DNA of 64,000 nt, from positions 18,408-82,407 of the forward strand of contig CANQDU010000007.1 in the NCBI GenBank assembly GCA_947593925.1. Reading direction: 5' to 3'. Both the position numbers and the translations under genes were made by a program. Shown here piece by piece: positions 1-40,315 of this stretch. A model generated the notes under the pieces. That model did not search any database and was not told the origin of the DNA. It saw only the letters and a list, made by a program, of their open reading frames with translations. Numbering within the stretch: position 1 is the stretch's first letter; the number at the start of each line of letters is the position of its first letter. The DNA is from an uncultured Clostridia bacterium. GTDB taxonomy: Bacteria > Bacillota > Clostridia > Oscillospirales > JAAYOS01.

Positions 1-271
1 TGTCGTCCCCCGCGCCGCCGAGGTGCGCCTGATAACTGCGGCTGAGCGCCATCAGCGTCGAGAAGAGCGCGCGGGCGTAGCCGCCGAGCTCGCCCGCCTC
101 CGCGCCGACGCGCTCGAGTATCTGCCGTTCGCGGTCGGGCTGGTAGAGCGCGAGCCCGTCGCGCTTCTTCGCCGCCGCCACATCGGCGGCGATGCTCATA
201 CGTTCGGTGAAGAGCGCGAGAAGCTGCTTATCCAGCACATCCAGCCGTGCACGAAGCTCAGAGAGTTCCAT
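1..271 (-). CDS. Chorismate mutase (AroQ class), N-terminal part. The ORF runs off the left edge and may be the CM domain of a bifunctional CM/prephenate dehydratase.
   Basis: Hand translation of the minus strand from ATG at 271 gives MELSELRARLDVLDKQLLALFTERMSIAADVAAAKKRDGLALYQPDRERQILERV..., a typical AroQ helical pattern. The start overlaps the aroC stop by 14 nt. It is absent from the ORF track because it has no stop in the window. Confidence 0.7.
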   Translation of the reverse strand, partial: MELSELRARLDVLDKQLLALFTERMSIAADVAAAKKRDGLALYQPDRERQILERVGAEAGELGGYARALFSTLMALSRSYQAHLGGAGDD

Positions 272-1361
272 TTTCGGTCGCTCCTTTGTTTCCGAGGATA
301 AGGTCGAGAAGCACGCACGCCGTCACCGCCTCAACGCACGGAACGGCGCGCGGGACGATGCACGGGTCGTGCCTGCCCGCGATGACAAGCTCGGTCTCGC
401 TACCGCTCGCAAGGTCAACAGACCTCTGCGGCTTCGAGATGGACGGCGTGGGCTTGAACGCGACGCGGAAGAGAAGCGGCGCACCGGTCGTCATGCCGCC
501 GAGGACGCCGCCGGCGTGGTTCGTGAGCGGCGTCACCCTGCCGTCCGAGATGCCGTAGCCGTCGTTATGCTCCGAGCCGCGCATCGCGGCGGCGGCGAAG
601 CCGTCCCCGAACTCTATGCCGCGCACCGCGCCGAGGGTGAATATTGCCGCAGACAGGCGGTTCTCGACGCCGTCCGAGAGCGGTTCGCCGAGCCCGGTGG
701 GCAGTCCGACAGCGGCGCACTCGACGATGCCGCCGACGCTGTCGCACTCGGCGCGCGCCGAGGCTATCGCCGCGAGCATCTTTTCGGCGGCGGCGTCGTC
801 AAGGGCGGGAAACTCCTTTTTGCCCGCCGCCTCGAGCTCCGCGCGGGTGACACGGAGGGGGTCGAACGCCGCGTCGCGCACACCCGCTATCGCGGCGGCG
901 TGCGCGCCGACGTATATCCCGCGCCGCGCGAGTATCTGCTTTGCCATGCCGCCGACGGCGCATATCGCGGCGGTGAGGCGGCCGGAGAAGTGTCCGCCGC
1001 CCGAGCGGTCGGCGTATCCGCCGTACTTTACGTACATCGGATAGTCCGCGTGGGACGGGCGGGGTATGTTCTCAAAGGACTTGTAATCCGAGGAGCGCTG
1101 AGAGGCGTTCTCGATAAAGAGCGCGAGCGGCGCGCCGGTGAGGACGCCGTCCCGGATACCGCCGAGGAAGCGGGGACTGTCCGCCTCGCGGCGCTGTGTC
1201 GAGAAGCTCTTTCCTCCGGCGCGGCGCGCCATGAAGCGCGCGAGCTCGTCCGGGTCGATGCGCTCGCCCGCGGGAAATCCCTCCGCGACGGCGCCTATGC
1301 CCGCGCCGTGAGACTCGCCGAATACCGTCACCCTGAACGCTTCGCCGAAGCTAGAGGACAT
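258..1361 (-). CDS. aroC: Chorismate synthase
   Basis: 367 aa. N-terminus FGEAFRVTVFGESHGAGIGAVAEG, plus the GGGHFSGRLTAA and AGRHDPCIVPRAVP signature regions. Sits in the aro operon. Confidence 0.95.
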   Translation of the reverse strand: MSSSFGEAFRVTVFGESHGAGIGAVAEGFPAGERIDPDELARFMARRAGGKSFSTQRREADSPRFLGGIRDGVLTGAPLALFIENASQRSSDYKSFENIPRPSHADYPMYVKYGGYADRSGGGHFSGRLTAAICAVGGMAKQILARRGIYVGAHAAAIAGVRDAAFDPLRVTRAELEAAGKKEFPALDDAAAEKMLAAIASARAECDSVGGIVECAAVGLPTGLGEPLSDGVENRLSAAIFTLGAVRGIEFGDGFAAAAMRGSEHNDGYGISDGRVTPLTNHAGGVLGGMTTGAPLLFRVAFKPTPSISKPQRSVDLASGSETELVIAGRHDPCIVPRAVPCVEAVTACVLLDLILGNKGATENGTL

Positions 1362-2541
1362 GGACTATCCCTCCCAGATGTTTGAAATCTTCAAAGAACC
1401 CCGGATAGCTCTTTTCGACGGCCTCCGCGCCGCGTATGACGGTCTCGCCGGAGGCGTGAGCGGCGGCGACTGCCGCCGCCATGACTATCCTGTGGTCGCC
1501 CGCGCCATCTACCTCGCCGCCGGAGAGGGGCGAAGGCTCGACCGTGAGGCCGTCGTCGGTCTCACGGCAGACGCCGCCGAGCGCGCGGAGCGCCGCCGCG
1601 ACGGAGGCTATCCTGTCGCTCTCCTTTAAGCGCAGGCGAGCCCCGCCGACGAAGACCGTTCTCGCACGGGCGGCGGACGCCGCGAGCGCGAGCGCGGGAA
1701 AGAGGTCGGGCGAGCCGCTGACGTCCACCGTGCCGCCGAGGGTTTGGAGCAGACGCGCGGCGGCGCGGTCGGGCTGTGCGGAAGCGCCGTCAAGACCTTC
1801 GACCGAGACGTCCGAGCCGAAGGCGTTCGCCTCCTGCCAGAACGCGGCGGAGGACCAGTCTCCCTCCGCGTCCGCGCGGCCGGGCGAGCGAACCCTGCCG
1901 GACACGGCAAACGTTCCGCCGCCGCGCGAAACGGATACCCCGAAGCGCTCGAGCGTCCGCAGGGTCATATCGACATAGCCGGCGCTCTCGAGCGCCGTCG
2001 TGAGGCGCACCGAGCCGCCGCCGAGGTGCGCAAGCGCCATCAGCATACCGCTGATGAACTGCGAGCTGATGTTGCCCGGCAGCTCGTATTCTCCGGGGCG
2101 AAGCCTGCCGCTTATCTCGATAGGCAGGAGGTCTGCGGATACGGAGACGCCGCCGCTCCGCAAGGCGGCGGTGAGGGGAAGCATCGGACGCTCGCCGAGG
2201 CGTCCCTCCCCGACAAATTTCGCGCTCACGCCGAGCGCCGCCGCGACAGGCAGCAGAAAGCGGAGCGTGGAGCCGCTCTCATGGCAGTCGAGCGTGAGCG
2301 GAGACGCGGGAACGGAGGACACCGGCGTCACGAGAAAGCCGTCCTCCGTCCGCTCTATGCCCGCGCCGAGCGCGCGGAGGAGCGATGCGGTGGCCTCGAT
2401 GTCCCGCGAGACGTCGGGGCAGCCGACGAAGGTCTCCTTTTCCGCGAGGGCGGCGAGTATCAGCAGACGGTGCGCGTCCGACTTGGAGGGTATCGCGCGG
2501 AGCGAGCCCGAGAGCCGGTGCGGGGTTATCCTGATATTCAT
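1351..2541 (-). CDS. aroA: 3-phosphoshikimate 1-carboxyvinyltransferase (EPSP synthase)
   Basis: 396 aa. Motifs PSKSDAHRLLILAALA and HESGSTLRFLLP, and the C-terminal DHRIVMAAAVAA. Ends overlap aroC and lie next to aroB. Confidence 0.95.
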   Translation of the reverse strand: MNIRITPHRLSGSLRAIPSKSDAHRLLILAALAEKETFVGCPDVSRDIEATASLLRALGAGIERTEDGFLVTPVSSVPASPLTLDCHESGSTLRFLLPVAAALGVSAKFVGEGRLGERPMLPLTAALRSGGVSVSADLLPIEISGRLRPGEYELPGNISSQFISGMLMALAHLGGGSVRLTTALESAGYVDMTLRTLERFGVSVSRGGGTFAVSGRVRSPGRADAEGDWSSAAFWQEANAFGSDVSVEGLDGASAQPDRAAARLLQTLGGTVDVSGSPDLFPALALAASAARARTVFVGGARLRLKESDRIASVAAALRALGGVCRETDDGLTVEPSPLSGGEVDGAGDHRIVMAAAVAAAHASGETVIRGAEAVEKSYPGFFEDFKHLGGIVHVL

Positions 2542-2550
2542 GGCGTCTCC

Positions 2551-3636
2551 TTATTTCACGCCGGCGGCGGCGAGGACGCCGCCGAGCCGGTCGGTTGGTA
2601 TGCGAGTGATACGGCAGCGCCCTACCGTCTCGGGAAGGATGAAGTCTATCCCGTCGCCCGAGCGCTTCTTGTCCGAAAGCATCACCTCGGCGAGCTCGGA
2701 GGCGGGAATGTCCGTTTCGGTAGGAAGCCCGGAGGCGCGGATGCCGTCCGTTATCTCGTCGCGGTCAGACTCCGCAAGTATGCCGAGCGAGCAGGCGGCG
2801 CGCGCCGCCATCGCCGTTCCTATCGCGACGGCGTGGCCGTGCGAAACGGCGTAGCCGCTGCACTTCTCTATCGCGTGGCCGAAGGTGTGGCCGAGGTTCA
2901 ATAGCTTTCGCGCGCCGCTCTCGCGCGTGTCCGCCGCGACGACGGAGGCTTTAAACGTTACGTTTGCTGCTATCGTCTCCGGGCGGAGCGCGCCGTGCGC
3001 GGCGGTGTCGCGGAAGAGCTCGCGGCTCGAGAGAACGCCGTGCTTCAGAGCCTCCGCAGTGCCGTCTCCGATGAGCTCCGTGGTGAGGGTCGCGAAAAGC
3101 GACGTGTCGCAGACGACGGCGGAGGGCTGGTGGAACGCCCCCGCGAGGTTCTTGCCCGCCGAGAGGTTCACGGCGGTCTTGCCGCCGACCGAGCTGTCAA
3201 CGGCGGCGAGAAGCGTCGTCGGGACCTGCATGAGACGGACGCCGCGAAGGTAGCTCGCGGCGGCGAAGCCGGCGACGTCGCCGACTATCCCGCCGCCGAC
3301 CGCGGCGACGGCGCAGCGGCGGGTGAGCTTCGCCGCCGCCATGCGCTCGAGTATCATGCCGAGCGTCGTGAGATTTTTGTTTTCCTCGCCGCCGGGCATG
3401 ACGATGCGCGTCACGGGAGCCATGCGCCCGAGCGCCGCTTCGGCGCGTTCGCCGAAGAGGCGGTCGGTGTTTTCGTCACAGATGAGAGCGAAGCCGTCCG
3501 GCGCGCCGCCGCGCAGAGGGAAGAAGTCGGCGAGAAGTTCGAGCAGTCCTTCGCCGATGTGTATGTCGTAGCCGCGCGAGTCCGGTGCGGCGTCTATCGG
3601 GTCGGCTGAGACGTGGACGAGTATCGCGTCAGACAT
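2551..3636 (-). CDS. aroB: 3-dehydroquinate synthase
   Basis: 361 aa. GGGIVGDVAGFAAASYLRGVRLMQVPTTLLAAVDSSVGGKTAVN and LNLGHTFGHAIE motifs. Confidence 0.95.
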   Translation of the reverse strand: MSDAILVHVSADPIDAAPDSRGYDIHIGEGLLELLADFFPLRGGAPDGFALICDENTDRLFGERAEAALGRMAPVTRIVMPGGEENKNLTTLGMILERMAAAKLTRRCAVAAVGGGIVGDVAGFAAASYLRGVRLMQVPTTLLAAVDSSVGGKTAVNLSAGKNLAGAFHQPSAVVCDTSLFATLTTELIGDGTAEALKHGVLSSRELFRDTAAHGALRPETIAANVTFKASVVAADTRESGARKLLNLGHTFGHAIEKCSGYAVSHGHAVAIGTAMAARAACSLGILAESDRDEITDGIRASGLPTETDIPASELAEVMLSDKKRSGDGIDFILPETVGRCRITRIPTDRLGGVLAAAGVK

Positions 3637-4468
3637 TTTCGCTTGCCTCCTTCATCTCGACGCCGCGCTCGAGCATCGCGGCAAGCGTCTCCGCGTCGCC
3701 GGAGCTTATCGCGCTCTCGAACGCGGAGAGACGGTCTATAAGGCCGCGCAGCTCGAAGGAGAGCGCGTCCCGGTTGTCAAGGAAGAGCTCGGTCCACATA
3801 TCCACCTTGAGCCGCGCGACGCGGGTGAGGTCCTTGAAGCTGCCGGCGGAGAAGCCGCCGTGCATCGCCGAAGTCTCGCTCTGGACGTAGGCGTTCGAGA
3901 CCACGTGCGCAAGCTGAGAGGTGTAGGCTATGACGCGGTCGTGCCGCTCCACGGAGGATACGGTTATCCGTCCAAAGCCGAGCGACAGAAAGAAGTCGTG
4001 AAGCGAGCCCATGAGGTCGGGATCGACGTCCTCCGGAGGGACGAGTATCATCGAAGCGCCATCGAACAGCTCCTCCTGCGATGCGGAGAAGCCGGAGATC
4101 TCGCGGCCGGCCATGGGGTGTCCGCCGATGAAGGCAAACCCGTGCTCGCGCGCGGCCTTGAAGCATTCGGGGCAGACGGCGCCCTTCACGCCGCATAGGT
4201 CGATAACGGCGGTGTCGAGCGAGAAGAGGTGCGCGTGCCCGAGCACGTAGTCCACCGTGGATTGCGGATACAGCGCGACGAGAACGAGGTCGCAGAGGGG
4301 CAGAGTCTCGTCGGTGAGGACGGCGTCAACGACGCCCTCGCCGAGCGCCGCTTCGAGCGGCGCCTTCGAGCGGTTGCATGCGTAGACCGTGTGGCCCGCG
4401 CCGGAGCGCTTTATCGCGCGCGCCATGCTCCCGCCAATGAGACCGAGGCCGACTATACCTATATTCAT
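3629..4468 (-). CDS. tyrA: Prephenate dehydrogenase
   Basis: The track ORF is 3629..4576. I place the start at the internal ATG at 4468 (MNIGIVGLGLIGGSMA, Rossmann GxGxxG), just downstream of the aroF stop at 4473. A GGHPMAG motif is present. Confidence 0.85.
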   Translation of the reverse strand: MNIGIVGLGLIGGSMARAIKRSGAGHTVYACNRSKAPLEAALGEGVVDAVLTDETLPLCDLVLVALYPQSTVDYVLGHAHLFSLDTAVIDLCGVKGAVCPECFKAAREHGFAFIGGHPMAGREISGFSASQEELFDGASMILVPPEDVDPDLMGSLHDFFLSLGFGRITVSSVERHDRVIAYTSQLAHVVSNAYVQSETSAMHGGFSAGSFKDLTRVARLKVDMWTELFLDNRDALSFELRGLIDRLSAFESAISSGDAETLAAMLERGVEMKEASENV

Positions 4469-4472
4469 ACGG

Positions 4473-5486
4473 TCACGCCTCGCGCTCGTAGGCATAGGGA
4501 CGGAGCGCGTCGATGCTCCGCATGAGGCGCTCGAAGTTCTTCGGGGTGAGCGACTGCGGGCCGTCGCAGAGGGCATGCGCCGGGTCGTTGTGTACCTCTA
4601 TGATGAGGCCGTCCGCTCCGGCGGCGACCGCCGCGAGTGCCGTCGGCGGGACGAGCGAGTGCTTGCCGGTGGCGTGGCTCGGGTCAACTATGACGGGGAG
4701 GTGGCTGAGGTCCTTGAGGACGGGCACGGCGCTGATGTCGAGAGTGTTGCGGGTGTAGGTCTCGAACGTGCGGATGCCGCGCTCGCAGAGCACGACCTGC
4801 TCGTTGCCGCCCGCCATGATGTACTCGGCGCTCATCAGCAGCTCCTCGAGCGTGGAGCTGAGGCCGCGCTTGAGGAGTATCGGCTTGCGGAGATGTCCGA
4901 GCTCCTTCAGGAGCTCGAAGTTCTGCATGTTGCGCGCGCCGACCTGAATCATGTCCACGTCGTCATACAGGCCGAGCTGGGAGAGATCCATTATCTCGGT
5001 GACTATCGGCAGTCCGGTCTCGCGCTTGGCCTCGACGAGGAGACGGATGCCGTCCTCGCGCAGTCCCTGGAAGGAGTAGGGCGAGGTGCGCGGCTTGAAC
5101 GCGCCGCCGCGCAGCAGCGTCGCGCCGGATGCCTTTACGGCCTTTGCGACGGCGCATATCTGCTCCTCGCTCTCGACCGAGCACGGGCCGGCTATGACCT
5201 GGAAGTTCCCACCGCCTATCTTCACGCCGCCGACGTCTACGACGGTGTCGTCCGGGTGGAACTTGCGGTTCGCGTTCTTGAACGGCTCCTGGACGCGCTT
5301 GACGTCTTCGACGATGTCGAGCGCCTGGATAAGGTCGATGTCGATCTTCGATGTGTCGCCGACGAGACCGAGGATGGTCTGAAGGTGGCCGACGGTCGTG
5401 TGGACGCTTATGCCCATATCGTCGAGCCACTTTGTCAGCATGTCGAGCTGCGCCTTGTCCGGGTTCTGCTTGAGAATGACGATCAT
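4473..5486 (-). CDS. aroF: 3-deoxy-7-phosphoheptulonate (DAHP) synthase, type I-beta, with an N-terminal ferredoxin-like regulatory domain
   Basis: The track ORF is 4473..5648. The likely start is the ATG at 5486 (MIVILKQ...), preceded by GGAGGAAT. The catalytic core reads IAGPCSVESEEQ...LLRGGAFKPRTSPYSFQGL. Confidence 0.9.
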   Translation of the reverse strand: MIVILKQNPDKAQLDMLTKWLDDMGISVHTTVGHLQTILGLVGDTSKIDIDLIQALDIVEDVKRVQEPFKNANRKFHPDDTVVDVGGVKIGGGNFQVIAGPCSVESEEQICAVAKAVKASGATLLRGGAFKPRTSPYSFQGLREDGIRLLVEAKRETGLPIVTEIMDLSQLGLYDDVDMIQVGARNMQNFELLKELGHLRKPILLKRGLSSTLEELLMSAEYIMAGGNEQVVLCERGIRTFETYTRNTLDISAVPVLKDLSHLPVIVDPSHATGKHSLVPPTALAAVAAGADGLIIEVHNDPAHALCDGPQSLTPKNFERLMRSIDALRPYAYEREA

Positions 5487-5541
5487 TTTTAATTCCTCCG
5501 ATACTTTTTGAAAGCGAGGCCCGTTCCGCGCCGCGCGGAAC

Positions 5542-5572
5542 AAAAAAGCTCCGCGGCGGTCTGCCGCGGAGC
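5542..5572 (-). terminator. Intrinsic terminator inside the aro operon 5' leader (attenuator terminator)
   Basis: The minus strand reads GCTCCGCGGC-AGACC-GCCGCGGAGC, a perfect 10-bp GC-rich stem, followed directly by TTTTTT. It lies 55 nt upstream of the aroF ATG and downstream of the leader ORF stop. Confidence 0.75.
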
Positions 5573-5592
5573 GTTGTTGCACAGATTGCGGT

Positions 5593-5697
5593 CTATGCCC
5601 TGACGTCTTCCACAGCAGAACAAGCCTTGCCGAAGTAATAGCCGGCAAAGCTGAAGCTAAAGTAGAAGTATCCGTTTTTACGCGAACAGTCAGACAT
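5593..5697 (-). CDS. Candidate aro-operon leader peptide, 34 aa, rich in Phe and Tyr
   Basis: It is the internal ATG of track ORF 5593..5793. GAGGT lies 8 nt upstream. Translation is MSDCSRKNGYFYFSFSFAGYYFGKACSAVEDVRA, with 5 Phe and 4 Tyr between codons 10 and 22. It sits between a sigma-70-like promoter and the leader terminator. Confidence 0.55.
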   Translation of the reverse strand: MSDCSRKNGYFYFSFSFAGYYFGKACSAVEDVRA

Positions 5698-5728
5698 AGG
5701 TTGGAACCTCGCTTTTGAACTTACGAAT

Positions 5729-5757
5729 ATTTTATATCCTGACGTCCGTTTTGTAAA
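5729..5757 (-). promoter_or_regulatory. Sigma-70-like promoter of the aro leader/operon
   Basis: The minus strand reads TTTACA-17 nt-TAAAAT (-35 at 5752..5757, -10 at 5729..5734). Confidence 0.45.
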
Positions 5758-5844
5758 GCACAAAATGATTTCCCCGGGGATATTTGTGACCATACGACAA
5801 ATATTCCCAAGGGAAATACGAAAATTCTATGGAGTTTGACGGCG

Positions 5845-7263
5845 TCACACGGCGGCCGCAGCAGCCGCCGCTTCGGCGGCGAGGCGTTCGTCGCGCTTCT
5901 TCTTCATGGGGTTCAGCTTGAACTTCTTCAGCAGGAAGTAGCTGAGCAGGTGAATGAGCGCCGTCGCCGCCCACGAAATGGGGTAGGAGATAAAGAGCGT
6001 AAAGAGCGTGTGGTGCATGGCAAAGATGGTGTATATCCAGAGTATGCGCGAACCGCAGACGCCGAGTATCGACACGACCATCGGAATGAACGAGTAGCCG
6101 GTTCCGCGCATGACGCCGCAGAGAACGTCCATCATGCCGCACAGGAAGTACGGCGCGCTCAGCAGCAGCAGACGGTCGATGCCGTACTGTATCGCGACCT
6201 CGTCCTGTATGTAGATGGAGAGCAGCGGGTGGCCGAGAAGGTACACGCCGACGCCGAACACCAGGCCGACGATCGTCACCATCATTTCACAGAGCAGCAG
6301 CACGCGGTCGATACGCTCGTACTTCTCCGCGCCCATGTTCTGCCCGGTGAAGCTGAGTGCGGCCTGATAGAACGAGTTCATCGCGACGTACACGAAGCCC
6401 TCGAGGTTTGCCGCCGCGCCCGAACCGGTCATGACGACCGAGCCGAAGGAGTTTATCGACGACTGGATTATCACATTGGACAGGGAGAAGATGATGCCCT
6501 GGATACCCGCCGGGATGCCGATGCGCGCAAGCCCCCAAAGCATGTCGAGGTGTATGCGCAGGCGGCGGAGATAAACGCGGTACGGCCCGTCGCTCTTCAC
6601 AAGGCATATCAGCACGAGCGCGGCGGAGACGTACTGCGAGATTATCGTCGCTATCGCGACTCCCGCGACGTCCATCTTGAACACGATGACGAAAAGCAGG
6701 TTCAGTAAGACGTTCAGCACGCCCGCGATTATGAGGAAGTAGAGCGGGCGGCGCGTGTCGCCGACCGAGCGGAGCACCGCCGCGCCGAAGTTGTAGAGCA
6801 TGTTTCCCGGCATGCCGAGGAAGAAAATCTTGACGTACAGCGCGGACTGGCCTATGACATTTTCCGGCGAGTCCATCAGCTCGAGCATCGGGCGGGCGAA
6901 GAACCAGCCTATCACGGCAAGTATCGCGCCGGCGGCGAGGCTTGTTGCGATAGAGGTATGTACCACGCGGTCGAGCATCTCGCGGTCGCCCGAGCCGTAG
7001 TAGCGTGCGACAAGGACGTTGGTGCCTATCGACAGGCCGATAAAGAGGTTGACGATGAGGTTGACCATCGAGCCGGTGGAGCTGACGGCCGCAAGCGAAG
7101 TGTCGCTGCCCCAGTTGCCGACGACGATGATGTCCGCCGCGTTGAACAGAAGCTGGAGCATGCTCGACAGTGCGAGCGGGAACGCGAACCGGCATATCTT
7201 GCCGAGCAGCGGTCCTTTTACCATATCCATTTCATAGCTGCGTGTGCGAGCCAAAACAGTCAC
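5845..7263 (-). CDS. MATE family efflux transporter
   Basis: 472 aa polytopic membrane protein. N-terminus GPLLGKICRFAFPLALSSMLQLLFNAADIIVVG is typical of MATE/NorM. The start is uncertain: the GTG at 7263 lacks a spaced RBS, and ATG codons at 7230 or 7224 are alternatives. Confidence 0.85.
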   Translation of the reverse strand: MTVLARTRSYEMDMVKGPLLGKICRFAFPLALSSMLQLLFNAADIIVVGNWGSDTSLAAVSSTGSMVNLIVNLFIGLSIGTNVLVARYYGSGDREMLDRVVHTSIATSLAAGAILAVIGWFFARPMLELMDSPENVIGQSALYVKIFFLGMPGNMLYNFGAAVLRSVGDTRRPLYFLIIAGVLNVLLNLLFVIVFKMDVAGVAIATIISQYVSAALVLICLVKSDGPYRVYLRRLRIHLDMLWGLARIGIPAGIQGIIFSLSNVIIQSSINSFGSVVMTGSGAAANLEGFVYVAMNSFYQAALSFTGQNMGAEKYERIDRVLLLCEMMVTIVGLVFGVGVYLLGHPLLSIYIQDEVAIQYGIDRLLLLSAPYFLCGMMDVLCGVMRGTGYSFIPMVVSILGVCGSRILWIYTIFAMHHTLFTLFISYPISWAATALIHLLSYFLLKKFKLNPMKKKRDERLAAEAAAAAAAV

Positions 7264-36948: not shown

Positions 36949-37125
36949 TTATCTGAAGCGGTTCGTCCCGGCGTCGTACTCGAAGCCGGCGTCCGCGAGC
37001 TTCCTTTCGAGCGCCGCGCGCTCGACGCCGCACGCGGCGCACAGCTCGTCAAGAGTCGGATAGAAGTCCCGAAGGCGGGTATTGACGACGCTGAGGAGCA
37101 TGAAAGGATCTTCGGGGAGTTTCAC
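36949..37125 (-). CDS. DUF4250 domain-containing small protein
   Basis: Not in the ORF track because it is under 60 aa. Hand translation from the GTG at 37125, which forms a GTGA overlap with the alaS stop, gives (M)KLPEDPFMLLSVVNTRLRDFYPTLDELCAACGVERAALERKLADAGFEYDAGTNRFR. This matches my recollection of the DUF4250 consensus. Confidence 0.65.
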   Translation of the reverse strand: MKLPEDPFMLLSVVNTRLRDFYPTLDELCAACGVERAALERKLADAGFEYDAGTNRFR

Positions 37126-39767
37126 AGTCCGAGCTTCCCCGCGACGAAGTCGTCTACTATCGCGAGCGCGTCGTCTACCTTGTTCGGGTTCTTGCCGCCG
37201 CCCATCGCGCTCGACGGCTTGCCGCCGCCGGAGCCTCCGGCGACCTTGCAGACCTCGCGCACGAGGTCGCCGGCCTTGACGCCGGCCTTCACGGCGTCCG
37301 GCCCGCAGACGGCAAGGAAGGTGACCTTTCCGTCAACAACGGAGCTCAAGACCGCAACGATCGCGTTCTCCTTCGAGAGTATCTGGTCGCCCATCTGGCG
37401 GAGAGTGTTCGCGTCCGCACTGCCGACGACCGAGGTGAACAGCTTGAGCCCGCCGACGGTCTTTGCGCTCATGAGGAAGCGGTCGATGCCTGCCGCCGCG
37501 TCCTTGAGGCGGAGCTTTTCGAGCTCGCGGCGGAGCGACTTTGTCTCCTCGAGCTGCGCGCGGGCGCGCTCGACGAGGTCGGACGGCGTCGTCTTCAGCT
37601 CGGCGGCGACGGTGTGGAGTATCTTTTCGGTCTTTGCGAGGGTGTTCAGGACCTCCTCGCCGACAATAGCCTCGATGCGGCGGACGCCGGAAGCAACCGA
37701 GCCCTCGCTTGTGATGTGGAACGGGCCGACCTTCGCGGTGTTGTCAAGGTGGGTGCCGCCGCAGAGCTCCATGGAGTAGTCTCCGCCCATGCGGACGACG
37801 CGGACGACGTCGCCGTACTTCTCACCGAAGAGGGCGGTGGCGCCGATGGCCTTCGCCTCGTCTATCGGCATCTCGTCGGTGCGTATCTCGAGACCCGCGA
37901 GGATGTGACGGTTGACCTCGCGCACGACGTCGGCTATCTCGTCCGGCGTCATGGCGCTGAAGTGGGTGAAGTCGAAGTGGAGCCTGTCCGGCTCGACGAG
38001 GCTGCCCGCCTGCTCGACGTGCGTGCCGAGCCGGCTGCGGAGCGCCTTCTGGAGAAGATGCGTGGCGGAGTGGGCGCGGCAAATGGCGGCGCGGCGTTCG
38101 GCGTCTATCGAGACGGATACGGTGTCTCCGAGCTTTATCTCGCCGCTCACGACTTTTCCGTAGTGCATGAACTTGCCGCCCTTGTTCTTCTGGACGTCGC
38201 TCACTTCGAACCTGCCGCCCGCGCACTCTATCACGCCGCGGTCGGCGACCTGTCCGCCCATCTCGGCGTACATCGTCGTGCGGTCGAGGACGATAAGCGC
38301 CTCGACGCCGGAGGCTATCTCGTCGCGGAACTCGTCGTCCGCGACTATCGCGAGGACCTTGCCCTCGGTCGTGTCCTTCGTGTATCCCTCAAAGACGGTC
38401 TCGGGCATGTCCTTGCCGAACTCGATGCCGGCCCAGCCGAGGTCGCCGAGCGCTTCGCGCGCCTTGCGCGCGCGGACGCGCTGCTCCTCCATGAGGCGGC
38501 GGAACTCCTCGTGATCGACGGTGAGTCCCTTCTCGCCGACTATCTCCTCGGTGAGCTCGACGGGGAAGCCGTAGGTGTCATAGAGCTTGAATGCGTCGGC
38601 TCCGCCAAAGACCGTCTCGCCCTTGGCGAGGTGTCCGTCCACAAGGCTCGTGAGTATGCCGAGGCCGGAGTCTATCGTGCGGGCGAAGTTCTCCTCCTCC
38701 ATGCGGACTATCTTCGCGATGTACTCCTGCTTGCTTCGGAGCTCGGGGTAGGCGCTCTCGTTCTCGTTTATGACGGTGTCCACGACCTCGTAGAGGTAAG
38801 GGCGGTGCACGCCGAGCAGACGGCTGTGGCGCGCCGCGCGGCGGAGCAGGCGGCGGAGGACGTAGCCGCGTCCCTCGTTGGAGGGGAGCACGCCGTCGGA
38901 GATCATCATGACCGAGGCGCGGATGTGGTCGGTGATGATGCGGAGCGACACATCGCTCTTCGCGTCCTCGTGGTACTTCACGCCGGTGTACTCGGACACC
39001 TTATTTGTAATGTTTATCACGGTATCGACGTCGAAGAGCGAGCCGACGTCCTGCATCACGCAGGCGAGGCGTTCGAGACCCATGCCGGTGTCGATATTCT
39101 TCTGCTTCAGCTCGGTGTAGTTGCCCTCGCCGTCGTTGTTGAACTGCGAGAAGACGATGTTCCAGACCTCGATGTAGCGGTCGCAGTCACAGCCGACGGT
39201 GCAGGTGGGCTTGCCGCAGCCGTACTTCTCGCCGCGGTCGTAGTATATCTCGGAGCAGGGGCCGCAGGGACCCGCGCCGTGCTCCCAGAAGTTGTCCTCA
39301 CGGCCGAAGCGGAATATCCGCTCGGCGGGGATATTCATCTCCTTGTTCCAAATCTCGAAGGCTTCCTCGTCCTCCTCGTATATCGAGGGGTAGAGGCGGT
39401 CGGGGTCGAGACCCATCCACTCCTTGCCGGTGAGGAACTCCCACGCCCAGTGTATAGACTCGTGCTTGAAGTAGTCGCCGAACGAGAAGTTGCCGAGCAT
39501 CTCGAAGTAGGTGCCGTGGCGGTCGGTCTTGCCGATATTTTCGAGGTCCTCGGTGCGGATGCACTTCTGGCAGGTAGTGACGCGGTGGCGCGGCGGCTCC
39601 TGCTCGCCCGTGAACCACGGCTTCAGCGGCTGCATCCCCGCGACGACGAGGAGGACCGACTTGTCCCCCTGGGGAATGAGCGGGAAGCTCGGCAGGCGGA
39701 GATGCCCCTTCGTCTCAAAGAACGCGAGAAATTTTTCGCGTATTTCGTTAAGACCCATGTAGCTCAT
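37122..39767 (-). CDS. alaS: Alanine--tRNA ligase
   Basis: 881 aa. N-terminus REKFLAFFETKGHLRLPSFPL, an editing domain with HSATHLL, and a C-terminal DHHA1-like domain. Confidence 0.97.
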   Translation of the reverse strand: MSYMGLNEIREKFLAFFETKGHLRLPSFPLIPQGDKSVLLVVAGMQPLKPWFTGEQEPPRHRVTTCQKCIRTEDLENIGKTDRHGTYFEMLGNFSFGDYFKHESIHWAWEFLTGKEWMGLDPDRLYPSIYEEDEEAFEIWNKEMNIPAERIFRFGREDNFWEHGAGPCGPCSEIYYDRGEKYGCGKPTCTVGCDCDRYIEVWNIVFSQFNNDGEGNYTELKQKNIDTGMGLERLACVMQDVGSLFDVDTVINITNKVSEYTGVKYHEDAKSDVSLRIITDHIRASVMMISDGVLPSNEGRGYVLRRLLRRAARHSRLLGVHRPYLYEVVDTVINENESAYPELRSKQEYIAKIVRMEEENFARTIDSGLGILTSLVDGHLAKGETVFGGADAFKLYDTYGFPVELTEEIVGEKGLTVDHEEFRRLMEEQRVRARKAREALGDLGWAGIEFGKDMPETVFEGYTKDTTEGKVLAIVADDEFRDEIASGVEALIVLDRTTMYAEMGGQVADRGVIECAGGRFEVSDVQKNKGGKFMHYGKVVSGEIKLGDTVSVSIDAERRAAICRAHSATHLLQKALRSRLGTHVEQAGSLVEPDRLHFDFTHFSAMTPDEIADVVREVNRHILAGLEIRTDEMPIDEAKAIGATALFGEKYGDVVRVVRMGGDYSMELCGGTHLDNTAKVGPFHITSEGSVASGVRRIEAIVGEEVLNTLAKTEKILHTVAAELKTTPSDLVERARAQLEETKSLRRELEKLRLKDAAAGIDRFLMSAKTVGGLKLFTSVVGSADANTLRQMGDQILSKENAIVAVLSSVVDGKVTFLAVCGPDAVKAGVKAGDLVREVCKVAGGSGGGKPSSAMGGGKNPNKVDDALAIVDDFVAGKLGL

Positions 39768-39814
39768 TGAAATATCTCTCCCGGTACATTATAATATAGT
39801 AGTTGGCTTCATAT

Positions 39815-39843
39815 ATTTTATACTCTATCCGCCGCGCTGTCAA
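39815..39843 (-). promoter_or_regulatory. alaS promoter
   Basis: The minus strand reads TTGACA-17 nt-TAAAAT, about 45 nt upstream of the alaS ATG. Confidence 0.55.
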
Positions 39844-40182
39844 TCCCCGCGCGGAAAGGAAGCGGAAAAGCCGCGCCCGGGAGAGTTTTCCAAAGTAATC
39901 GTTATCAAAAAACGCGCGTTCGCTCGGGAATGAGTTTTTTCCGTTTTTGCGAAGTTAGATTTCCACGCAAAACGCCCGGCCGCCGTTTTTGCCTGCAAAA
40001 ATGCCGTTTTGCGCATGATGCACAAAAAATACGGAGCTTTTGGCAAATTTAAAGGACAAAATTTCGCACAAATTGCATGTCCGTAAAAACGAGAAAATTC
40101 GTCAAAATCGCAATTTCTGCCGCGCGTTTGTCAAGTTGCAAAAAATCGTAAATAAAATTTTGTGAAAAATAGCAAAAAGGTC

Positions 40183-40211
40183 TTGCAATTTGCACAAGAG
40201 CATAGTACAAT
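40183..40211 (+). promoter_or_regulatory. Promoter of the sugar ABC permease pair
   Basis: TTGCAA-17 nt-TACAAT, about 100 nt upstream of the ATG at 40316. Confidence 0.5.
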
Positions 40212-40315
40212 ATTCATGTAAGTTAACCAAACCGACGTACCGGTACGCATGGTGGTGAAGGCGCCGTGCGTTTCTGTTCGTTCAGGTCTGGGAAAACCTA
40301 GTAAGGAGGTTAGTC

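Follow-up and report, generated by a model that had tools for sequence, protein, structure and literature searches.

Upstream of aroF in an uncultured Clostridia bacterium lies a short open reading frame (ORF) that is dense in Phe and Tyr codons and is followed at once by an intrinsic terminator. We located this leader on the minus strand of contig CANQDU010000007.1, in a stretch of 64,000 nucleotides (nt) that was analyzed whole and is called the window here. We conclude that the leader is very likely a classical ribosome-mediated transcription attenuator of the aroF-tyrA-aroB-aroA-aroC-chorismate mutase operon, a conclusion drawn from sequence comparison and folding. Its codons indicate that it probably responds to charged tRNA-Phe and charged tRNA-Tyr both. 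An earlier examination of the letters alone (the sequence-only reading) had proposed ribosome-mediated attenuation; the in silico tests that could refute this proposal were run, and none did. The position of the transcription start, translation of the ORF, termination, and relief of termination by starvation for Phe or Tyr are all predictions from the sequence.

Both the window leader and its relatives possess the parts of such a switch: a short ORF of the translated type, a cluster of codons for the products of the pathway, a terminator, an antiterminator that excludes it, and a helix between regions 1 and 2 (1:2) that covers the codons. In the window these parts are as follows, with energies as folded:

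5757..5729, minus strand: predicted sigma-70-type promoter, with -35 box TTTACA at 5757..5752, a 17-nt spacer, and -10 box TAAAAT at 5734..5729

5710..5706, minus strand: leader Shine-Dalgarno sequence GAGGT, 8 nt before the ATG at 5697

5697..5593, minus strand: leader ORF of 34 codons plus a TAG stop (5595..5593), peptide MSDCSRKNGYFYFSFSFAGYYFGKACSAVEDVRA

5670..5632, minus strand: regulatory run, spanning codons 10-22 (Y F Y F S F S F A G Y Y F), the proposed stall zone

5668..5657, minus strand: region 1, the outer anti-antiterminator strand, made of CUUCUAC (5668..5662) and UAG (5659..5657)

5668..5607, minus strand: full 1:2 hairpin, -25.8 kcal/mol

5652..5623, minus strand: inner 1:2 hairpin within the codon run, AGCUUUGCCGG (5652..5642), loop CUAUUACU, UCGGCAAGGCU (5633..5623), -16.0 kcal/mol

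5619..5609, minus strand: region 2, the antiterminator 5' strand, UCUGCUGUGGA, codons S-A-V-E, able to pair with region 1 or region 3

5570..5560, minus strand: region 3, the antiterminator 3' strand, UCCGCGGCAGA, which takes 8 of its nt from the 10-nt 5' arm of the terminator and 3 from the loop

5572..5542, minus strand: intrinsic terminator (3:4), stem 5572..5548 and U6 5547..5542, GCUCCGCGGC-AGACC-GCCGCGGAGC, a perfect 10 bp, -21.9 kcal/mol

Window leader, minus strand: antiterminator hairpin, -30.7 kcal/mol

The sequence-only reading had called the promoter, the ribosome-binding site with its 34-codon ORF, the 10-bp GC terminator, the antiterminator, and the folding of the aromatic codons on themselves, and we recovered every one of them in the positions listed above. 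The promoter site scores 10 of 12 and is the sole such site in 5300..6000, where shuffles yield 0.3. Phe or Tyr occupies 9 of the 13 codons of the run (5 Phe and 4 Tyr), and Trp is absent from it. The antiterminator duplex UCUGCUGUGGA/UCCGCGGCAGA comprises 11 bp, 2 of them G-U, and has an energy of -19.7 kcal/mol. The terminator begins 20 nt past the leader stop, and its T-run ends 55 nt before the aroF ATG. In the minimum free energy (MFE) structure, CUUCUAC of region 1 pairs with GUGGAAG (5613..5607), and UAG pairs with CUG (5618..5616). The leader as a whole folds with z = -5.3 relative to shuffles.

Could such an arrangement be peculiar to one genome? We examined 80 aroF loci on one-genome-per-species contigs. 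At 74 of them an F/Y-rich mini-ORF opened by ATG is followed by a GC hairpin and a T-run 15-56 nt past its stop; the stop typically lies ~80-130 nt from the aroF start, and the gap from terminator to aroF start is typically 21-46 nt. The carriers are Oscillospiraceae, Acutalibacteraceae, Oscillibacter (including O. valericigenes) or Dysosmobacter, metagenome-assembled genomes (MAGs) labelled Lachnospiraceae, and a Faecalibacterium MAG. In the cultivable strain O. valericigenes Sjm18-20, the leader occupies ~3,570,149-3,570,310 of AP012044 (L049:2813-2974). Family leader peptides have a mean length of 30 aa (range, 16-41) and follow the pattern ..AEY.YFSFTYFYGKAY.GLAE.., region 2 being G-L-A-E in most relatives. 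Their composition is 16.9% F, 12.7% Y, and 0.4% W, with a mean of 5.1 Phe and 3.9 Tyr per peptide. A Shine-Dalgarno sequence (GGAG, GAGG, or AGGA at -17..-4) precedes 57 of the 74 leaders, compared to 10% of background windows. Promoters scoring at least 10/12 occur within 130 nt 5' of the leader ATG in 62% of the family, compared to 4% of shuffles, and the -10 hexamer lies a median of 32 nt from the leader ATG. Where the alignment is coding, gap lengths judged by eye are mostly multiples of three, and the predicted leader reading frame is conserved across the family.

We also scanned metagenome contigs without reference to aroF, by the inner-hairpin motif alone (TTTAGCTTTRYC-N6-18-GRYAAGGCT). 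Proper leader ORFs were found at 92 of the 120 loci, and the rest were chance matches, mostly within long ORFs. Wherever a motif-selected contig extended at least 300 nt downstream, aroF was the next gene after the leader (88 of 88 contigs). Hence, the leader element is dedicated to aroF. An aromatic-codon mini-ORF conserved in relatives, on which the sequence-only reading had staked its proposal, is therefore present both in the related genomes (74/80) and on the metagenome contigs (88/88). Since the arrangement is conserved, and covaries, in 74 other genomes, it is not due to chance.

Perhaps the mini-ORF is instead a functional gene for a small hydrophobic peptide, equipped with a terminator of its own, and aroF is a mere neighbor with a separate promoter? 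Gene callers do report the ORF from more than 1000 contigs, labelled as a hypothetical protein, and the peptide sequence is fairly conserved (AEY.YFSFTYFYGKAY.GLAE). However, the element accompanies aroF alone on all 88 motif-selected contigs, and the 21-46 nt between terminator and aroF leave little room for a promoter. Moreover, the conserved peptide positions are those of RNA helices that show nucleotide constraint and covariation, while ORF length (16 to 41 aa) and the C terminus vary freely. We regard this explanation as extremely unlikely.

The exact leader peptide of the window has been called as a gene, without a name, on 13 public contigs, and leader mini-ORFs have been called on more than 1000, where the only names are "hypothetical protein," "Uncharacterised protein," or "unknown." One copy is filed under a "Bacteriophage sp." MAG (DAN32647.1), probably a bacterial contig wrongly assigned. 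The 90% protein cluster that holds the window peptide also includes unrelated PslH-like proteins of 393 aa, a clustering artifact.

To follow the helices across the family, we used a MAFFT nucleotide alignment of 59 leaders. In it the terminator is paired in 94.9% of cells, with compensatory changes in 11 of its 11 pairs. The inner 1:2 helix is paired in 92.8% of cells and has compensatory A-U to G-C changes; the figure for the outer 1:2 helix is 68.9%. All whole-structure measures beat 500 of 500 shuffles and every slid control, although the shuffle controls overstate significance because MAFFT takes no account of structure and the sequences are related by descent. RNAalifold, which was blind to our model, returned the same inner hairpin and terminator, with 14 of 18 pairs compensatory.

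The antiterminator was paired in 70.8% of cells, compared to 25-46% when its partner was slid. Because it involves the terminator loop, it is harder to align, and we therefore used an alignment-free swap test, in which the best duplex of the segment after the codon run was computed with the terminator 5' arm and loop of its own leader or with those of other leaders. Native duplexes averaged -15.1 kcal/mol and swapped ones -11.8 kcal/mol; none of 10,000 permutations was as good, and the result persisted after dereplication to 67 distinct strands. Covarying pairs of strands include GGUUUGGCUG/CAGCCAAACC, GGUUUCACCG/CGGUGAAAUC, UUGCACUG/CAGUGCAA, and GAGUAUGUCUGC/GCAGCAUACUC, in addition to the UCUGCUGUGGA/UCCGCGGCAGA pair of the window. 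The loop of the terminator, that is, covaries with codons of the leader. Region 1 and the antiterminator 5' strand behaved likewise in the swap test (native, -9.8 kcal/mol; non-native, -8.0 kcal/mol; 0/10,000 permutations as good). Covariation in the stems, the check that the sequence-only reading had suggested, thus supports the terminator, the codon-run hairpin, the antiterminator, and the anti-antiterminator. We conclude from the alignment counts and swap tests that all the 1:2, 2:3, and 3:4 helices of an attenuator are supported.

Codon choice within the leader is consistent with these helices. All aligned leaders with an F-S-F motif have AGC as its Ser codon, as seen on inspection of the alignment and not from a per-position count; over whole family leaders AGC accounts for 75 of 177 Ser codons. 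G-K-A is encoded in the family as GGY AAG GCU. We attribute this codon constraint to the nucleotide level because AGCUUUACC pairs with GGUAAGGCU, the change from ACC/GGU to GCC/GGC being compensatory. The conserved tail of the peptide coincides with RNA helices. A stretch of ~30 nt encodes peptide and at once joins two alternative helices, and it could serve as a model of overlapping constraints.

Conservation of the peptide is unusually high even past the aromatic run, and the ribosomal exit tunnel can interact with aromatic-rich nascent chains. We wondered, then, if the nascent leader peptide might arrest the ribosome in the style of TnaC or the Erm leaders, sensing free Phe or Tyr or another small molecule and not charged tRNA. 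Such logic would be wrong for biosynthesis, however, since an abundant amino acid would induce the operon. The conservation outside the run is accounted for by RNA pairing, and the order and length of the run vary as those of hungry codons would and as those of an arrest motif would not. We judge arrest of this kind to be highly improbable. A broader proposal is also unlikely, if a little less so: the G-K-A-Y/F-x-G-L-A-E tail would additionally enhance arrest or sense a ligand within the exit tunnel as part of the nascent chain, or the hydrophobic peptide would be functional once released, giving a dual sensor of hungry codons and nascent peptide, and a diverged form of the cassette may have passed to Lentisphaerota (Victivallales MAGs) along with aroF.

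T-boxes are the usual amino acid sensors of Firmicutes, and a leader of ~180 nt that ends in a terminator is compatible with one. A T-box, or another riboswitch that binds a ligand or tRNA, might on this account drive the terminator, leaving the mini-ORF incidental. We searched the leader (5300..6000) against Rfam 15 at E values up to 10 and obtained nothing meaningful, only spurious sub-threshold matches (TCL6, mir-1902, xerDC, and the like). At the Rfam gathering score there was no match in the whole 64-kb window and none over the leader at 12 related loci, one of them from the complete Oscillibacter valericigenes genome; these loci gave one match in all, the signal recognition particle RNA in L004, away from the leader. 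The comparison with known elements that had been recommended for the sequence-only reading hence assigned no family to the leader. Nor does the leader contain a T-box core sequence, and no riboswitch model explains its start codon, Shine-Dalgarno sequence, kept frame, and run of F/Y codons. The chance that a riboswitch is at work here is, in our estimate, close to nil.

Regulation by an RNA-binding protein (TRAP-like, PyrR-like, or similar) that chooses between antiterminator and terminator according to Phe or Tyr, with the ORF no part of the sensor, also has precedent: the aromatic genes of Bacillus are under protein-mediated attenuation by TRAP, and the alternative helices seen here would suit such control equally well. 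A TRAP site would consist of nine to eleven (G/U)AG repeats, spaced 2-3 nt apart and overlapping the antiterminator. The 184-nt leader, however, has only four GAG/UAG triplets (5710, 5659, 5595, and 5551), irregularly spaced, and no TRAP-type site. A protein sensor would leave unexplained the conserved Shine-Dalgarno sequence, ATG, and frame and the extreme F/Y enrichment, as well as the placing of the antiterminator strand one ribosome footprint 3' of the last aromatic codon. Such a protein is very unlikely to be the sensor.

We therefore favor the attenuator, which we propose would work as follows. Transcription would start ~25 nt 5' of the leader ATG, and a ribosome would load on the leader ORF. 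Region 1 would extend from the 5' part of the ORF through the aromatic codons, and region 2 would be made up of the codons that come next (in the window, GKA.. and SAVE). The terminator would supply region 3 with its 5' arm and loop and region 4 with its 3' arm. When Phe and Tyr are plentiful, the ribosome would cross region 2 (codons 24-34) while the polymerase makes regions 3 and 4 and would then come to rest on the stop codon, which separates region 2 from region 3. Region 2 would fail to capture region 3, or would pair again with region 1; the 3:4 terminator would form, and transcription would end at the U-tract 5547..5542. When Phe-tRNA or Tyr-tRNA is scarce, a ribosome stalled in codons 10-22 would melt or occupy region 1 and the inner hairpin. 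Region 2 would then pair with region 3 as the latter emerges, no terminator would form, and the polymerase would enter aroF. Attenuation would act on top of likely allosteric feedback through the ferredoxin-like domain of the DAHP synthase; feedback via such a domain is known for the DAHP synthase of Thermotoga.

The geometry agrees with this scheme. Counted from the first base of the last aromatic codon, region 2 starts after 15 nt in the window and after a median of 19 nt in the family (interquartile range, 17-22). Region 2 is thus just outside the 3' edge of a ribosome stalled at the last aromatic codon, and because of this 15-nt spacing, a stalled ribosome would leave it free.

The energies of the two states are also close. 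In the window, the 1:2 hairpin plus terminator amounts to ~-47.7 kcal/mol and the inner hairpin plus antiterminator hairpin to ~-46.7 kcal/mol, so the terminated and antiterminated states are predicted to be nearly isoenergetic. As long as the 3' arm of the terminator is yet to be made, the nascent transcript has the antiterminator as its MFE structure. Folding, a point on which the sequence-only reading could have failed, thus did not refute it. We simulated the ribosome as a 28-nt mask. In equilibrium folding of the masked RNA, the MFE structure switched to the antiterminator only for a stall at codon 12; since it switched so seldom, we analyzed truncated nascent transcripts ending at the terminator loop. 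In the nascent window transcript the antiterminator had a pairing probability of 0.94 for stalls at codons 6-22, compared to zero with the ribosome at codons 26-33 and 0.006 at codon 34. Across the family, 73-81% of members were antiterminated as nascent transcripts with a stalled ribosome and 51% without a ribosome.

Several of our findings weigh against the attenuator, in addition to the inflated significance of the shuffle controls. At equilibrium the full-length RNA favors the terminator, by 4.3 kcal/mol in the window and, across the family, by a median of ~10 kcal/mol. The antiterminator would therefore have to work by kinetic trapping, as is normal for attenuators. Without a ribosome, the nascent window transcript also adopts the antiterminator, as do the 51% of the family just mentioned. 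Hence, the 1:2 hairpin is not thermodynamically dominant, and an untranslated leader may read through. A footprint centered on the stop codon covers only ~2 nt of region 2 in the window, and the distance from stop codon to region 2 ranges from -35 to +46 nt across the family. The sequence-only reading had held that a ribosome reaching the stop would mask the antiterminator strand. Given the ~2-nt overlap, this step of masking at the stop needs rewording: the ribosome would cover the strand while codons 24-34 are translated and, once parked at the stop, would lie between the two antiterminator strands. On steric grounds only, we argue that a non-stalled ribosome would block antitermination either by occupying region 2 during the synthesis of regions 3 and 4 or by its place between regions 2 and 3.

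Some members of the family end their ORFs early. In L017, L021, L028, L050, L056, and L074, the leader ORF stops right past the aromatic run, within the inner hairpin's 3' strand. These short-ORF variants have their antiterminator strand 13-35 nt 3' of the stop, as in Escherichia coli trpL, whereas in most others it is inside the ORF. Since these variants end upstream of the antiterminator strand, the position of the stop is not a conserved part of the switch.

Other observations concern the RNA of the window leader itself. Directly 3' of the terminator U-tract is a second perfect 8-bp GC hairpin, GUUCCGCG-CGG-CGCGGAAC (5541..5523, minus strand; -11.6 kcal/mol). It lacks a U-run of its own, and outside the window it was seen in the near-identical MAG L001 alone. 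In the MFE structure of the window there is also a long-range helix of 12 bp, formed by AAAGCGAGGUUC (5703..5715) of the leader Shine-Dalgarno region and GGGCCUCGCUUU (5508..5524), just 5' of the aroF Shine-Dalgarno sequence. We rejected it as a conserved element: in a swap test of 59 family members, native helices (-7.4 kcal/mol) did not differ appreciably from swapped ones (-7.2 kcal/mol), and there were no outliers. We treat the AAAGCGAGGUUC/GGGCCUCGCUUU helix as species-specific or due to chance.

The genes behind the leader have the content that the sequence-only reading had assigned to them (DAHP synthase, prephenate dehydrogenase, AroB, AroA, AroC, and a partial chorismate mutase), as Pfam bears out:

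5499..5495, minus strand: aroF Shine-Dalgarno sequence GGAGG

4473..5486, minus strand: aroF, first base of the start codon at 5486, DAHP synthase, the first regulated gene

3629..4576, minus strand: prephenate dehydrogenase (tyrA) ORF, by Pfam

2551..3636, minus strand: aroB, by Pfam

1351..2541, minus strand: aroA, by Pfam

258..1361, minus strand: aroC, by Pfam

Operon remainder 1..4576, minus strand: chorismate mutase (CM_2), by Pfam, partial and cut by the window start

The aroF product matches PF00793 at 1e-78 and PF18152 at 1e-19 in Pfam, and its N terminus carries the ferredoxin-like regulatory domain. It is 99% identical to the AroF of a rabbit-gut "uncultured Clostridia" MAG (L001); the other AroF proteins among the matches listed are at most 88% identical, and most of the remainder are 74-78% identical. 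The longest prephenate dehydrogenase ORF, which starts at 4576, shares 104 nt with aroF (4473..4576, minus strand). Because its Pfam domains start at residues 34-51, the true start is probably near the aroF stop. A BLAST search of the region against a plasmid collection gave no match.

On its other side, the leader adjoins a MatE transporter gene, whose stop is at 5845. An imperfect long palindrome, UUUCCCUUGGGAAUAUUUGU...ACAAAUAUCCCCGGGGAAA (~5776..5819, minus strand; ~-22.7 kcal/mol), lies between this stop and the -35 box at 5757. It could be a terminator or stabilizer of matE, or an operator just 5' of the leader promoter.

By regular-expression and aromatic-ORF scans we found no other copy of the leader in the window than that at aroF. 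A Phe-rich 39-codon ORF at 40131..40250, upstream of alaS, was considered as a second leader and rejected, as it lacks leader-like features. It lies in an AT-rich intergenic region of unusual length (~540 nt; 39768..40310, minus strand) 5' of alaS (37122..39767). The region upstream of alaS has no Rfam match, and we therefore place no T-box there.

Among the 80 loci, some depart from the family pattern. Two are leaderless, aroF coming directly after another gene (L004 and L062), and two are truncated (L058 and L071). L031 has a leader with a weak U-tract. At L064:1194-1613 there is no leader ORF, and a long inverted repeat (..CAUUGCGAGGAGCAAAGCGACGAAGCAAUCC..GGAUUGCUUCGCUGCGCUCGCAAUG..) lies directly 5' of aroF, perhaps a mobile repeat or a regulatory structure of another kind. 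In the Faecalibacterium MAG, L070:2872-2975 holds a very short Tyr-only leader, MARYAYYYVLYGKCRA, with 5 Tyr and no Phe, and its codons suggest lineage-specific tuning of the amino acid that is sensed.

A diverged subtype occurs in MAGs labelled Lentisphaerae/Victivallales (L040, L053, L068, L072, and L079, also L019), with leaders ~100-270 nt before aroF. Peptides of this subtype end in ..F(Y)F-R-K-R-G-G.., and its AroF is 70-76% identical to the Clostridia protein. Its antiterminator, AAGCGGGGC/ACCCCGCUG, uses the base of the terminator stem and not the loop. Either cassette and aroF crossed phyla together, or the contigs are mis-binned.

The mechanism we propose is a textbook one. The novelty lies in the family, with its breadth among dominant gut anaerobes and its bivalent Phe/Tyr run, and in a cleanly covarying three-state switch. 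We know of essentially no regulation described for these anaerobes, and the family offers testable regulation of aromatic amino acid synthesis in Oscillospiraceae, Acutalibacteraceae, Oscillibacter, Faecalibacterium, and related uncultured Clostridia. The small "hypothetical proteins" on more than 1000 public contigs merit reannotation as leader peptide. The element could furnish an Rfam entry, a Phe/Tyr-responsive part for the engineering of anaerobes, and a marker of aromatic amino acid prototrophy in metagenomes.

A search of the literature, with subscription-only papers outside its scope, yielded no description of an aroF leader element in Clostridia and no report of starvation-relieved premature termination for one. 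The nearest systems in logic are trpL and pheL, which share the four regions, the cluster of codons for the end product, and the 1:2, 2:3, and 3:4 helices with a terminator before a biosynthetic operon (PMC11802643 and general knowledge). The pheL leader of E. coli (pheA, pheST) has a Phe codon run in common with ours. The Clostridia leader showed no sequence or Rfam-model similarity to either (no leader family matched at E values up to 10), and its hosts are Clostridia, not Proteobacteria. Its target is a common-pathway operon that starts from DAHP synthase, in contrast to pheA, and its run mixes Phe and Tyr codons, which suggests bivalent sensing. Region 2 lies 3' of the stop in trpL but within the ORF, 5' of the stop, in most members of our family.

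In Corynebacterium glutamicum, the aroR leader (Neshat et al., 2014) likewise places an aromatic-codon leader peptide, with Phe-Tyr-Phe, before an operon led by DAHP synthase. In the passage that PMC11802643 devotes to it, stalling under Phe limitation enhances transcription, and the leader is insensitive to Tyr. By the same passage, the aroR host is actinobacterial and its regulatory codons number three, against 7-10 here. The two leaders are likely of independent origin.

The closest published item is uORFC-13-1 (Brewer et al., 2021, RNA Biol), a predicted upstream-ORF (uORF) attenuator found exclusively upstream of aroF by computation only, in 24 representatives from Acholeplasma and unidentified environmental sequences alone (PMC8632094). 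It has promoter-like boxes, a ribosome-binding site, a start codon, U-rich Phe codons, an extra base-paired element, and an adjacent intrinsic terminator (PMC8632094), and the Clostridia family agrees with this description in its aroF-only location, its uORF with Phe codons, and the terminator directly after. The published account notes "at least one" Phe codon and gives no antiterminator model (PMC8632094), whereas the family described here belongs to Oscillospirales and other gut Clostridia, has hundreds of members, and shows a resolved three-helix switch. Compared by description only, uORFC-13-1 may be a relative of the Clostridia aroF leader.

Leader peptides for His in bacilli, at hisZ and a hisS paralogue (Naville and Gautheret, 2010), were reported as the first outside Proteobacteria and Actinobacteria (PMC2965389). 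They too are ordinary leader-peptide attenuators of Firmicutes, at positions otherwise held by T-boxes (PMC2965389). They differ from the aroF leader in amino acid, target genes, and lineage and have no sequence relationship to it. Together with the Acholeplasma aroF uORF candidate (PMC8632094), they mean that leader peptides in Firmicutes are not unprecedented. To these few amino acid leader peptides of Firmicutes, the aroF family makes a large and well-resolved addition, one that bears on how often T-boxes and leader peptides have replaced each other.

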